Made by a program: the position numbers and the translations under genes. This document shows positions 22,646 to 30,708 of a stretch of DNA of 64,000 nucleotides, piece by piece. The notes beneath the pieces were generated by a model. That model did no database searches, was not told where the DNA came from, and worked only from the letters and a program-made list of their open reading frames with translations. Source of the DNA: Anaerolineae bacterium (GTDB lineage Bacteria; Chloroflexota; Anaerolineae; Anaerolineales; E44-bin32); NCBI GenBank assembly GCA_030605795.1, contig JAUWHR010000045.1, positions 3,665 to 67,664 on the forward strand. Direction: 5' to 3'. How positions within the stretch are numbered: the first letter of the stretch is position 1; every line of letters begins with the position of its first letter.

Positions 22646-22996
22646 ATGGCTAAGCCCAAGATCGATGCTTATAATTTCGGTCGGATCGTGATCGACGGAC
22701 AGGTCTATCAACGAGATGTGATTCTCCTCCCGGATCGTGTGTTACCCAATTGGTGGCGCGTCGAAGATCACTCGCTGGCTCTTGAGGATCTGCAGCAGGC
22801 TCTTGGTTGCTCGCCGCAGGTGCTGGTGATTGGATTGGGAAAGTATAGCCGGATGAAGGTGCCAGAGGAGACCCTGAAGCAGATTGAAGCCGCTGGAATC
22901 CGGCTGATAGCTCTGGAGACTAGTGAGGCTTGTGAAACTTATAACCAATTGCGTGAGCAGGAGCACGTAGTTGCTGCCTTGCACCTTACTTGTTAA
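22646..22996 (+). CDS. Mth938-like (DUF498) domain protein
   Basis: 116 aa. F.G.I.IDG..Y..DVI......V..W pattern and ..VLVIGLG... typical of the family. Confidence 0.6.
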   Translation: MAKPKIDAYNFGRIVIDGQVYQRDVILLPDRVLPNWWRVEDHSLALEDLQQALGCSPQVLVIGLGKYSRMKVPEETLKQIEAAGIRLIALETSEACETYNQLREQEHVVAALHLTC

Positions 22997-23226
22997 GGAA
23001 CGCACAAAAGGTTGTTCTCTTCCAACTCAGGGTGATCGAGTGCAGGTGAGGTTGTCCGCTTTCGGAGGTAAGGAGTTATGCCCATCGACTTTTGGTGTTT
23101 CTTATCATGGAAAAGGATGAAGTGCCTGATCCATTCAACATAACATCTTTCGGTATGATATGAATAGTGCTTGCGCTGGATGGCATCTCGGACCAGATCT
23201 AGCAGCTTGTTAGGACGTTGAGACAT
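22993..23226 (-). pseudogene. Integron-integrase-like tyrosine recombinase, N-terminal fragment only
   Basis: LLDLVRDAIQRKHYSYHTERCYVEWIRHFILFHDKKH..MG parallels the IntI N-terminus (LDQLRERIR.LHYS.RTEQAYV.WVR.FI.FH..RHP..LG). Similarity stops after ~50 aa, and the catalytic domain is absent. Confidence 0.65.
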
Positions 23227-23325
23227 CTGTTTAACCCTCTTGGTTGATGGTTACTGGGAATTGTTATATGCTCTAGTTGGAGTGTAGGGTCGATAGGGAA
23301 TATTGCATGTAGCACCCCCTTTAGG

Positions 23326-24264
23326 ATGACAGTACAGAATTCACGCCAGATAATCCAGTATAAAGAGACCTTTGATGAATTTCAGCATCTCATACTGTTG
23401 ATAGAGAAAGCCTTACGGCCACAGGGGGCGAATGTTACTGAGTCGAAAGAACTACTTGATCACATTCTCAGTGAAGAACGAGAGGTTGATATTGTGATCG
23501 AGTTCATCGACGGCATTCATCATGTGACGATTGGTGTGGAATGCAAAGGTGGTGGAAAGAAACCCAGAAGAGCAACAGTAGAATGGGTTGAACAAATGTG
23601 GGGAAAACACCTGACCTTGCCAACAGATAAACTAATCCTTGTTGCCAAGGCTGGATTCACCTCATCAGCGGAAAAGAAAGCTGCATTCTGGAACATTAAG
23701 ACGCTCAGTTTATCCCAGGCCGAAAATTCTGATTGGACCTCAGTTATTCGCAAGCTTAACTCGATTAATGTGGTAAATTTTCTTCTTCCGTACGCTACCC
23801 GCGCAACAGTGGTATTATGGATTGGCCCAAACGAAGATGAAGTTGATATGACCAAGATTGACTTGCAAAACTCAATGCTGTACGACGCAGCGGGCTCTAA
23901 AATCTCTACACCTCAGATACTTGTAGAAAGATGGCTCAGCGATCCAGTATTACTTCGAGAGATAGAAAAATTGGCTTATACAGACAGTGGCACAATTATC
24001 GAATTCGAGCGGAACCTAAAACCCGGAGAGTATTTAGTTGATGAAACTGGAAAAAAGCGGTCAGTCGTTGCAATCAAAGTCGAAGCAAAATGTAAAAAAG
24101 AAGTAACCACCGTTGAAATGTCGCAGGGATCGTACGGGGAAGCTGCGCTTTCATACGGAAAAGCCCGCTTCTTTAGAAAGTCGATGCAGTTTCTGGCAGT
24201 TCAACAACCGGATGATGATCCACGCCTCATTGTTTCAGTGAAGCAGCCAAAATCCAACAAATAA
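23326..24264 (+). CDS. PD-(D/E)xK restriction-endonuclease-like protein with unknown C-terminal domain (integron cassette ORF)
   Basis: The motif ..REVDIVIEF..(13 aa)..IGVECKGGG fits D...(D/E)xK of Mrr/NucS-like nuclease folds. The ~180 C-terminal aa carry no recognisable motif. Low GC. An attC follows immediately. Confidence 0.6.
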   Translation: MTVQNSRQIIQYKETFDEFQHLILLIEKALRPQGANVTESKELLDHILSEEREVDIVIEFIDGIHHVTIGVECKGGGKKPRRATVEWVEQMWGKHLTLPTDKLILVAKAGFTSSAEKKAAFWNIKTLSLSQAENSDWTSVIRKLNSINVVNFLLPYATRATVVLWIGPNEDEVDMTKIDLQNSMLYDAAGSKISTPQILVERWLSDPVLLREIEKLAYTDSGTIIEFERNLKPGEYLVDETGKKRSVVAIKVEAKCKKEVTTVEMSQGSYGEAALSYGKARFFRKSMQFLAVQQPDDDPRLIVSVKQPKSNK

Positions 24265-24289
24265 AATGAAAGGCATAGCTTGATCGCCA

Positions 24290-24408
24290 TATAACAAATT
24301 GCTCAACCGGACGCCAAGAGCCGCGCTTTTAAGCGAAGGCTTTGTGCGTAAGGAGTAGAATTTTGGTGAAGCGCTACGAGCGCGCCGGTTAGCTCAAAGC
24401 CGTTATGT
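24290..24408 (+). mobile_element. Integron attC recombination site
   Basis: Left end ATATAAC-AAATT-GCTCAACCGGAC, right end GCCGGTTAGCTC-AAAGCC-GTTATGT. This is an imperfect palindrome with the R''/L''...L'/R' layout and unpaired bases, closely resembling classical attC ends (..TAACAATTCGTTCAAGCCGAC...GGCTTAACTCAAGCGTTAG..). Confidence 0.75.
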
Positions 24409-24508
24409 CGCTCATTTAATTAGGATATTCGGGAAATTCGTTCTTGGTATGGCAATTTATTTAGCTATCACGTGCTTCTCTAGAAATGTAAGCGGGAGAG
24501 GGTAGATC

Positions 24509-24994
24509 ATGAGACTGCGATTGAGGATCATCGCTTTTCCATTAGCCAGCATCACCCTTATTTCCTGCTGGTTCGTATTCTTCCTCTTCCTTCGTACTTC
24601 TCCCAGTAAGCCCCTTTTCATCATAGGGAATATCCTCATAGTAATCGGACTGCTGCTGATAATTCTTGCTATGTCTGCCTTACGAACACAGGGGATGACT
24701 CAAGATAAGCAGGACTTCACCGCAACAACAACGATCGTGAAGAGTGGGATCTACTCGATTGTCCGACACCCCCTTTATTTGGGCTGGCTTTTGATGTACC
24801 CCGCAGCTATGTTAGTGAGTCAACACTGGTTAGTATTAATATTAGGGGTAGTTGGTATGCTAAGCATGTATGTGATCACGATAGAAGCTGAGGACCGGCT
24901 AATAGATAAGTTTGGATTGGAATATCAGACGTATATGCAGGAAGTGCCAAGGTTCAATATCATCTTAGGCTTATGGTGCAAGTTACGGAGCTAG
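24509..24994 (+). CDS. Isoprenylcysteine carboxyl methyltransferase (ICMT/PEMT) family membrane protein
   Basis: 161 aa and polytopic. The GIYSIVRHPLYLG motif is typical of the ICMT/PEMT family. SD GGGAGAGGG. Confidence 0.7.
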   Translation: MRLRLRIIAFPLASITLISCWFVFFLFLRTSPSKPLFIIGNILIVIGLLLIILAMSALRTQGMTQDKQDFTATTTIVKSGIYSIVRHPLYLGWLLMYPAAMLVSQHWLVLILGVVGMLSMYVITIEAEDRLIDKFGLEYQTYMQEVPRFNIILGLWCKLRS

Positions 24995-25226
24995 AATGAT
25001 GATAATGTGAGCGGCATAATCACTCGCCAGACTGGATAAAAATTCAGCTAAAAGACTAATGGTGGGGGGAAATCGGTAAGAATTGTTTGGAAATAATGGA
25101 TAGCTCCCGTGGTTCAAACATTAATGGGGTTATAAATAGGGAGCTGTCCAGTGATTTTGAATATGGTTAACTTTTTTGGGCCCTCGCTGTAGCTCATTGG
25201 ATGAAACCCAAGCTGGTGTTGAAGAC

Positions 25227-25292
25227 CGGCTCCCTGCTGATTTATCTCTGGGGCTGGGTCCCCCTAATGCCCAGGGGACCAGCAGGGAGCCG
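25227..25292. repeat. Strong bulged hairpin in a 760-nt non-coding stretch
   Basis: CCGGCTCCCTGCTG[14-17 nt bulge]CTGGGTCCCC - loop - GGGGACCAGCAGGGAGCCG. About 21 bp are paired in total. Confidence 0.6.
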
Positions 25293-25757
25293 ATACTAAC
25301 TAATCATTGTGCCTTACCTGCTCAGTGCGCCAGGAGCACCACCATCGACTTGGAGATCTACCTTGCTCAACTCGGCTTGGATAAGGTTCTCGGAGCTCAT
25401 CACTATAGCTGACAGAAGATCCTCTCACCTCACACCACCTCGGACAACCTTTTATCTTGGACATAGCTTAGCAAGGCAGCGTTCTGCCAGTGTGGGATGG
25501 ATCGTTTATTCAGCGTGTTTTCTGAGGCAGATTGATGGACTCGCGAAAAAAAGAATAATCTGGAGGGGATTCTTGGGTTAAATAAATGTCCCTTGAGTTG
25601 GGCTAGACTGTTTCTCGTGTTCTGAAGTAATATGCGCGGTTGAAACAGGCTGCATAATGTGTACTTACTGATGCTATACTGTTATGAGCCATTCAGCTCG
25701 TGACAAAGCTCTGCTTTAAATCGAACACAATAACCCGCCCCGGGGGATGGTAAAGAA

Positions 25758-29787: not shown

Positions 29788-30708
29788 TCATTCTATACGT
29801 TGTATCTTGAACCGGTCAAAATCTCTTGCAACGGTGACATTAGGGAAGATTGCGCTAGCTTCTTCACGAACCTCCCTTTCCCGGTAGCGGCGTGAGATAT
29901 GGGTCAAGTAGAGGTGCCCCACTCCGGCTTGGAGGGCAAGCTCAGCGGCTTGGCGGGCGGTAAGATGGCCGAACGTGCGTGCTAGGTCGGCTTCAGGCTC
30001 TAGGTAAGTCGCTTCGATGATCAACCCATCAGCTTGACGGCATATCTCGACCAGGTTTTCCGTGCGACCACAGTCCCCAACATGAACCAAGCGGGTGCCG
30101 CGGCGGGGTGGACCCAGGATGTCGTCAGGTGTTATGATCCGACCATCCGGCAGGGTCACCTGATTTCCGTTCACCAACTCGCGCCGGATAGGCCCAGTGG
30201 GAACCCCGAGTTCTTCAGCGCGCTCGGGGAGAAACGGGCGGTGGGGAAGTTCCTCAAATATGAAACCAAAGCAACCCGAACCGCGATGTATTACGGGGAA
30301 GGTTGAGAGCCGTAGGCCATCTTCCTCAACAAGAAGGCCGGACTTGATGGGCTTCATATGAATCTCCATTGGGGGGCGTGCGCCGCGTAAAACGACTCCA
30401 AACAATAAGTCACGAATGCGCTCCATCGCCCAATCGCCGGCCCAAATTTCTAGTTGGTCGATCGCTTCCCAGCGGGAGAATGTTGATATCAATCCAGCTA
30501 AACCGAGGATGTGGTCCAGGTGGCCATGGGTGATGAAAATTCGATTTAGACGACGGAAACCAATGCCTGATTGTAAGATCTGCCGTTGGGTACCTTCACC
30601 ACAGTCGATTAAGAAGCGGTGGTTGCGATAGCTGACCACCTGTGCGGTGAGACCTCGGTGGATGGAGGGTGCTGAAGCAGAAGTACCTAAAAAAATTATT
30701 TCGAACAA
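29788..30708 (-). CDS. rnz: Ribonuclease Z (metallo-beta-lactamase fold)
   Basis: FLGTSASAPS..R......V.......FLIDCGEGTQRQ and ITHGHLDHILGL (HxHxDH motif). 306 aa. Confidence 0.85.
   Translation of the reverse strand: MFEIIFLGTSASAPSIHRGLTAQVVSYRNHRFLIDCGEGTQRQILQSGIGFRRLNRIFITHGHLDHILGLAGLISTFSRWEAIDQLEIWAGDWAMERIRDLLFGVVLRGARPPMEIHMKPIKSGLLVEEDGLRLSTFPVIHRGSGCFGFIFEELPHRPFLPERAEELGVPTGPIRRELVNGNQVTLPDGRIITPDDILGPPRRGTRLVHVGDCGRTENLVEICRQADGLIIEATYLEPEADLARTFGHLTARQAAELALQAGVGHLYLTHISRRYREREVREEASAIFPNVTVARDFDRFKIQRIE

Follow-up and report, generated by a model that had tools for sequence, protein, structure and literature searches.

Integron cassettes have been shown experimentally to carry phage defence genes (bioRxiv 10.1101/2024.07.02.601719), integrons are present in Chloroflexi (PMC4889954), and class 1 integrons offer documented cases of deletions or fusions by which a cassette ORF became joined to a leader or to a neighbouring cassette (PMC8876359, PMC4670013). 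In single-chain type IV enzymes, a PD-(D/E)xK domain and a reader domain are distinct parts of one polypeptide, a layout which the mechanism proposed below resembles. The locus described here is an open reading frame (ORF) of 312 aa located at 23326..24264 (+) of a 64,000-nucleotide stretch, the window, of contig JAUWHR010000045.1 from an Anaerolineae bacterium (assembly GCA_030605795.1). It encodes a protein with an N-terminal PD-(D/E)xK (Mrr_cat-like) domain and a C-terminal domain whose fold is without match. Tentatively, we read the locus as the only remaining cassette of a degenerate chromosomal integron, the window copy as a deletion derivative, and the family to which it belongs as a stand-alone restriction-like anti-phage nuclease.

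The cassette and its decayed integron

The ORF is present as given in a preliminary description of this DNA, and the strings quoted there are real: EVDIVIEF at residues 53-60, IGVECKGGG at residues 69-77 and LILVAKAGFT at residues 103-112. A search of 5.8 billion proteins returned 34 relatives, the closest 95% identical and the best with an E value of 1e-178, and the family profile matches 1073 cluster representatives at E<=1e-30 and 3466 at E<=1e-10; the ORF is therefore far beyond chance. Downstream of it, the window shows an attC site at 24289..24408 (+) with R'' ATATAAC, the spacer AAATT, L'' GCTCAACCGG, L' CCGGTTAGC, the spacer TCAAAGCC and R' GTTATGT, and with the crossover G|TT at 24402|24403. 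The bottom strand of this site folds with L'' and L' paired and one bulged G, which is the extrahelical base in L''. A scan with the strict motifs RYYYAAC/GTTRRRY found nothing, and the site was recovered when the outer positions were relaxed; it is the sole attC-like site which this crude scan detected in that part of the window. Since the scanner also gave false positives elsewhere in the window, the cassette status rests on comparative evidence.

Contigs L027-L030 show a DUF6506 cassette with its own textbook attC (z = -4.2) upstream of a flank shared with the window, and their homology to the window restarts exactly at GTTATGY CGCTCATTTAAT. From the R' core on, they are 95.8% identical to the window in a region containing a gene for an ICMT/PEMT-family membrane methyltransferase (24509..24994, +) and a BTAD/HEAT gene; the methyltransferase gene thus belongs to the right flank, outside the cassette, conserved in related Anaerolineales contigs. 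JGI contig L001 matches the fragment 23375-24397, which contains the ORF and the greater part of the attC, with 97.2% identity; L001 has nothing else in common with the window, and in it the cassette follows a split tyrosine recombinase. A mobile cassette is defined by exchange at a G|TT junction and by occurrence in unrelated contexts, here two, so that, judged by these comparisons, the window gene is confirmed as a real integron gene cassette, which is what the preliminary description had called it. The end of the L001 homology at 24397 was considered as a non-canonical crossover and was rejected, because L027-L030 show the canonical G|TT and the attC of L001 is disrupted: at L001:2090-2295 it is broken 5 nt before the R' core and runs into unrelated sequence. 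About 650 nt downstream of another family member, a weak match to the N-terminal domain of a group-II-intron reverse transcriptase (RVT_N) is located at L020:3109-3270. It is possible that attC-targeting group IIC introns are behind the features of L001 and L020.

The right boundary of the cassette is canonical; the left one is non-canonical because a deletion destroyed it. Upstream, an intI remnant is located at 22993..23226 (-), of which the N-terminal ~42-50 residues are integrase-like (Pfam Phage_int_SAM_4, E 5.6e-11; TIGR02249 'integron integrase', positions 1-42 of 315, E 4.4e-10). The remainder of intI is missing because a DUF498 gene (22646-22996) abuts it. The same remnant is found in L024 and L031, and a longer one of 76 aa, with an IntI match of E 7e-17, in L033. 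The left part of the attI region is retained at 23227..23382 (+) and, as far as 23382, shares 93-98% identity with L024 and L031-L034. After the equivalent of this position, those contigs run 58 nt more, with the stop of a small ORF, a CCCCCC-AGA-GGGGG hairpin and the core, the shared ...GATGAATTT being followed by ACTCCATAA-AAATCCCCCCAGAGGGGGAT...CACTAG|TTATGC. This continuation places the true attI core 58 nt past 23382, and it is absent from the window. The sequence GTTATAT at ~23261 was rejected as the attI core, as the conserved region of L031-L034 reaches 58 nt past 23382. With intI cut to positions 1-42 of 315 and the attI core gone, the window shows no intact integron platform, and as judged from these features the integron is a decayed, chromosomal one of Anaerolineales. 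GC is 0.43-0.45 over 23000-25200 and 0.51-0.55 around it, and the wider window is chromosomal core, with genes for an RpoD-like sigma factor, enolase, a cold-shock protein and an acylphosphatase.

The attI-type homology of the window stops at 23382 and the homology to the L001 cassette begins at 23375. The overlap, at 23375..23382 (+), is an 8-nt microhomology, ATGAATTT, common to the attI leader ORF and to cassette codons 6-8. Positions 23326..23382 (+) are the first 19 of the 21 codons of this leader ORF, which reads MTVQNSRQIIQYKETFDEF-TP* in relatives, with the end ...GATGAATTT ACT CCA TAA in L031-L034 and in the tail of L024; here they form the N-terminus of a chimeric ORF. The cassette ORF of L001 starts with TTG CCA AAA CGA TCT AAT GAA TTT (LPKRSNEF), which is a family-typical N-terminus. 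The simplest reading of the junction is a ~147-bp microhomology deletion between two ATGAATTT copies. The loss, as counted from the sequences, would comprise 58 attI-side nt and 89 nt of cassette 5'UTR and codons 1-6 (58 + 89 = 147), that is, the attI core, the 5'UTR and the first six codons (MPKRSN). A loss of 147 nt keeps the frame, and the cassette ORF would thereby have been fused to the 21-codon leader ORF and the cassette fixed in place. In the resulting chimeric ORF, 23326..24264 (+), 17 non-native residues replace MPKRSN and are followed by the sequence from codon 7 onward of the 301-aa family protein P0001. Truncation of intI and deletion of attI leave the cassette immobilised. An assembly chimera at 23375-23382 was considered and judged unlikely, because the two sources have only 8 nt in common, an overlap too short for k-mer assemblers. 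The locus is a clean natural example of integron decay, in which truncation of the integrase would have been followed by a microhomology deletion that removed attI and fused the cassette to the leader.

Some further observations concern this integron family. A conserved 21-codon attI ORF, MTVQNS[RL]QIIQYKETFDEF[TA][PL]*, is found in it (e.g., L034:837-902), and the order in this attI region is the 21-codon ORF, the hairpin CCCCCC-AGA-GGGGG and the attI core. Beyond the same attI, L031-L034 contain four different first cassettes, and the adjoining intI is truncated (as in the window in L031; the 76-aa remnant in L033). This diversity suggests either that an integrase acting in trans exchanged the cassettes or that intI was truncated once they had diversified. 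In L032:3435-4793 (locus - strand), the attI junction is followed by a 96-aa ORF and a gene for a 309-aa SPPYW adenine/N4-type DNA methyltransferase (NCBIfam, E 5e-18), which may be a restriction-modification cassette of the same integron family. On the right side of the window locus, 760 nt without a convincing ORF (24995-25757) separate the ICMT-family and BTAD/HEAT genes, and low GC extends to ~25200. The crude scan found no second attC near 24995-25757, and the ICMT-family gene is a candidate for an old fixed cassette.

A two-domain protein family

The AlphaFold2 (AF2) model of the window protein, built on the family alignment, has a pLDDT of 88.1, and its first 13 residues are disordered. 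The PD-(D/E)xK (Mrr_cat-like) domain, 23377..23730 (+), residues 18-135, is delimited by this model, by Foldseek searches against the PDB, by Pfam and by conservation over 150 representatives, which are diverse full-length family members. It shows an alpha-beta-beta-beta-alpha-beta core with helices at 18-30 and 85-95 and strands at 36-44, 51-62, 65-74 and 102-107. The top Foldseek match of the N-terminal ~120 residues is 1Y88/AF1548 (E 1.2e-5, rmsd 2.7 A, 120 columns), and further matches are Bax1, AspBHI, MspJI, Can2, Cdn1, BamHI and PaqCI, with a probability of ~1.0 for 1Y88, Bax1, AspBHI, MspJI, Can2 and BamHI. As these are PD-(D/E)xK proteins, the claim for this fold holds, and model and structure search agree with the Mrr-like domain that the preliminary description had seen in the N-terminal half. 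Pfam Mrr_cat (PF04471) matches residues 25-121 of the window protein with E 0.0026 and 18.3 bits, below the gathering score of 21, and is matched at E<=0.01 by 23 of the 34 relatives, the best at 1.9e-6. By these scores, the window protein is a divergent Mrr_cat relative and no clear member. NCBIfam and PDB sequence searches with the window protein gave no match, and neither did PDB profile searches.

Nearly all family members are of ~300 aa and align end to end. The near-invariant positions are S40, E53, D55, E72, R81, W87, K94, G110, F111, A115, A119 and W137, together with the N-terminal motif M-P-[KR]-R-[TS]-N-x-F-Q (P in 144/150, R in 144/150 and N in 141/150). The window protein keeps Q20, S40, E53, D55, E72, R81, W87, K94, G110 and F111. 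The metal-binding acidic residues are all present in it and are nearly universal in the family: E53 in 149/150, D55 in 148/150 and E72 in 150/150. The D...E-x-K arrangement noted at the outset is thus borne out for its acidic residues and fails for its lysine. The window protein has K74 at that position, where the family column is T44/R39/I20/V18/K9, so that lysine is found in only 9/151. With the acidic residues retained, catalysis is plausible, although another position would have to supply the lysine; K94, kept in 147/150 members and located on the following helix, is a candidate substitute, possibly a relocated lysine.

The beta-rich C-terminal domain, 23737..24243 (+), residues 138-306, is modelled with a pLDDT of 91.7 as two helices and long curved antiparallel strands. 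For these ~170 aa there is no sequence match in Pfam, NCBIfam, PADLOC or the PDB, no Foldseek match among PDB structures (best E 0.33, TM<=0.2) and no meaningful match in BFVD; the C-terminal half is as uncharacterised as it had first appeared. A profile search with the domain found no other domain architectures and located it in this family alone. Mean pairwise identity is 16% in the C-domain and 44% in the N-domain. A conserved N-domain with a fast-evolving C-domain fits the pattern of an effector joined to a specificity or sensor module. The family can thus be described as an uncharacterised two-domain variant, putatively a nuclease with a specificity domain, in which the C-terminal fold is possibly new.

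The family shows a patchy spread over Chloroflexota, Actinomycetota, Verrucomicrobiota, Proteobacteria and Planctomycetota. Searches of GenBank phages and IMG/VR returned no relative from phages or viruses, and the family is cellular. A search of plasmids gave five matches, which cover the N-domain alone.

Genomic neighbourhoods and the role of the family

Defence or mobile-element genes are found at about half of the loci examined, a tally made with no background gene set for comparison. Clear defence or conflict neighbours are present in L003, L013, L017, L037/38, L039/40, L043 and L045, and neutral or housekeeping neighbours in L002, L004, L019-23, L035/36 and L044. The gene adjoining the family member encodes AbiU2 in L003 and a STAND-like NTPase in L013. 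The neighbours are pPIWI_RE, an M78 peptidase, an EAD7-kinase and NACHT in L017, Ea47 and a 1172-aa helicase in L045, PIN and IS21 in L041, and two SMODS genes, SLATT_4 and a Type ISP restriction-modification (RM) enzyme in L039/L040. A pooled scan of 149 ORFs from 15 genome loci, with neither per-locus resolution nor control, gave a mixed picture. No fixed partner gene is located beside family members in the loci examined.

A distant homolog over both domains (hhalign 99.4%, E 1.4e-21) is found in the p251 array of Vibrio tubiashii, where VCR-like attC repeats flank it as a cassette in its own right and a PtuA/PtuB-like cassette and a kinase/PP2C pair are located nearby. Locus L043 (NZ_CP009356.1, 96179-112490) shows an integron-like array with ~125-nt VCR-type repeats, a PtuA/PtuB-like ATPase with HNH, a GNAT gene, the distant homolog, and a protein kinase with a PP2C phosphatase; its divergent recombinase matched generic tyrosine-recombinase models only. 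In L039:6777-7247 and L040:327-968, which are on two independent contigs, SLATT_4 is directly upstream of the family gene P0021 in the same direction, and in L039 two SMODS genes precede SLATT_4. The adjacency of SLATT_4 and P0021 could be a functional link or co-location in an island. In the window, 29788-30708 (-) contains a metallo-beta-lactamase/tRNase Z-like gene whose orthologs are labelled 'Anti-Pycsar Apyc1' in precomputed Pfam annotation; related strains conserve the gene, and a housekeeping role is more probable for it than one in anti-defence.

A stand-alone restriction-like defence nuclease is the best single explanation for the family, though its probability falls somewhat short of even. 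In the mechanism that we propose, the C-domain would recognise foreign or modified DNA, or a phage component, this recognition would license Mg2+-dependent DNA cleavage by the N-domain, and no methyltransferase or other partner would be needed. Several points weigh against this reading. Many loci show ordinary neighbours, such as TrmD, Mg-chelatase-like, glutamine synthetase and Complex I genes, and PADLOC-DB v2.0 models gave no match to the window protein at E<=10. As the canonical catalytic lysine varies among family members, nuclease activity itself is something we infer. The structure search found no SRA, winged-helix or other modification-reading fold in the C-domain, and this domain is slightly acidic (mean net charge -3.4), which argues against a simple, basic DNA-binding domain. 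The window copy has lost the conserved N-terminal motif, its dN/dS relative to L001 suggests moderate constraint only, and the junction is seen in one assembled contig only. Of the compact defence gene put forward in the preliminary description, the nuclease fold, the unassigned C-domain and the cassette stand; the defence role, though plausible, does not follow from the PADLOC result or from the mixed contexts.

Among the rival readings, one concerns the window copy alone, which would be a non-functional relic whose fusion ORF is open by chance and decays with the integron whatever the family does. We hold this to be somewhat unlikely. In its favour, P13, R15 and N17, present in 141-144/150 relatives, are absent, which makes the activity of this copy uncertain and, in our judgement, doubtful; the native start and ribosome-binding region are deleted, besides the losses in intI and attI; AGGA directly adjoins the ATG at 23326, a poor spacing; and dN/dS between the window and L001 is 0.48 (9 synonymous and 15 non-synonymous changes). 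The sole promoter-like match, which is the best of the region, is a sigma-70-like sequence at 23326-23354 (+) inside the leader ORF (ATGACA-17-GATAAT, 10/12); as the cassette promoter, it would begin transcripts downstream of the ATG of the fusion ORF. However, such matches are no more frequent in the region than in shuffled sequence, the 295 family codons are open with all other conserved residues intact, and R81 is kept in the window copy and changed (R81G) in the sister copy L001. Because the two ATGAATTT copies are in the same codon phase, the product is in frame and expression from leader-ORF signals could occur, with a precedent in the ORF-11/ORF-18 fusions of class 1 integrons (PMC8876359).

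The other rivals concern the whole family. PD-(D/E)xK domains have many repair and recombination roles, and a non-defence nuclease, acting either in DNA repair or recombination or as a selfish, addiction-type toxin that stabilises mobile DNA and cassette arrays, would suit the many loci among housekeeping genes and those beside integrases, IS elements, resolvases and PIN toxins. We consider it unlikely, as the family shows neither conserved synteny with repair genes nor a conserved adjacent antitoxin-like partner, is patchy over phyla with mobile cassettes included, and has a C-domain whose divergence is very fast, unusual for housekeeping enzymes. It is improbable that the nuclease fold is catalytically inactive and the protein a DNA- or ligand-binding regulator or adaptor, as could be proposed from the T, R, I or V mostly present at the E-x-K lysine position and from the weak match of one relative to Pfam 'NACHT-associated inactive REase'. 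Inactivated REase domains normally lose the acidic residues which are here kept in 148-150/150, as K94 is in 147/150, and active enzymes also vary the third motif position, as BamHI does with E113. Least probable is an effector nuclease that, like those of the Can2/Card1 or Cap4 type, would be activated by a signal, with a C-domain that binds a nucleotide second messenger from another system. The Foldseek matches to the Can2 and Cdn1 nuclease domains, the weak matches of a few members to PADLOC CARF_PDDEXK models and the family gene directly after SMODS-SLATT genes in L039/L040 point that way, but the PADLOC matches span the nuclease core only, the C-domain shows no CARF or SAVED similarity, and most loci, both integron cassettes included, have no cyclase nearby.

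Within the restriction-like defence reading, a more specific proposal, which we regard as doubtful, is a new single-protein anti-phage system. It would combine a variant nuclease (E-x-D...E core, lysine from elsewhere and an essential PxRxN arm) with a C-domain of unseen fold sensing a phage component and not a DNA sequence, and would be circulated as a cassette by Chloroflexota and Vibrio integrons. If the family proves to consist of defence nucleases, it would be a widespread single-gene defence system with >1000 sequence clusters in five phyla, it would add a sensor fold not recognised so far and an active site of non-canonical composition, and the idea of 'integrons as defence biobanks' would extend beyond Proteobacteria. 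The window ORF is a poor choice for experiments, for which members that retain the native MP[KR]R[TS]N start are preferable.

Comparison with known systems

The attI leader ORF of the window resembles ORF-11, ORF-17 and ORF-18 of attI1, which are likewise short ORFs that precede the first cassette within the attI region. In contrast to the attI1 leaders, it has a length of 21 codons and stops short of the crossover, and a hairpin comes after it. The fusions of class 1 integrons differ from the one described here, which would have arisen by deletion of the attI core itself and in which leader translation is putative.

Among the phage-resistance integron cassettes called BRiCs, Brc142, a 'putative dimeric restriction endonuclease' (bioRxiv 10.1101/2024.07.02.601719), is also compact, single-gene and restriction-endonuclease-like. 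Brc142 has 142 aa and the members of this family ~300 aa, and they are different proteins. BRiCs are experimentally tested genes of class 1 mobile integrons, whereas the present gene is a candidate, carried by a chromosomal Chloroflexota integron that has decayed. PDC-S02, a candidate system of PADLOC, likewise comprises a single gene whose product has an Mrr-like nuclease core, and its HMM is matched by 13 of 135 family members and by the Vibrio homolog (best E 1.7e-6). The match is confined to the nuclease core, where it spans ~57 residues (HMM positions 252-308 of 346), which places the nuclease of PDC-S02 at the C-terminus and leaves the rest unrelated; membership in PDC-S02 was therefore ruled out, as only the nuclease core is shared with a differently built protein.

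Mrr (PF04471) and 1Y88 show the same alpha-beta-beta-beta-alpha-beta core as the family, with D on strand 2, E on strand 3 and the strand-helix signature 'LILVS-x-GFT-x-x-A'. Unlike Mrr, in which the nuclease domain is C-terminal, the family has it at the N-terminus, without the winged-helix Mrr_N and the conserved motif lysine, and with the additional near-invariant N-terminal MP[KR]R[TS]NxFQ. MspJI and AspBHI (PDB 4F0P, 4OC8) are, as proposed for the family, single polypeptides of similar size without a cognate methyltransferase, in which a PD-(D/E)xK domain is joined to a separate beta-rich recognition domain, and their nuclease domains resemble that of the family in structure. The recognition domains of MspJI and AspBHI are SRA-like, whereas the acidic C-domain of the family matches neither these nor any other PDB structure. 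In overall layout, PvuRts1I and AbaSI are the nearest to the family.

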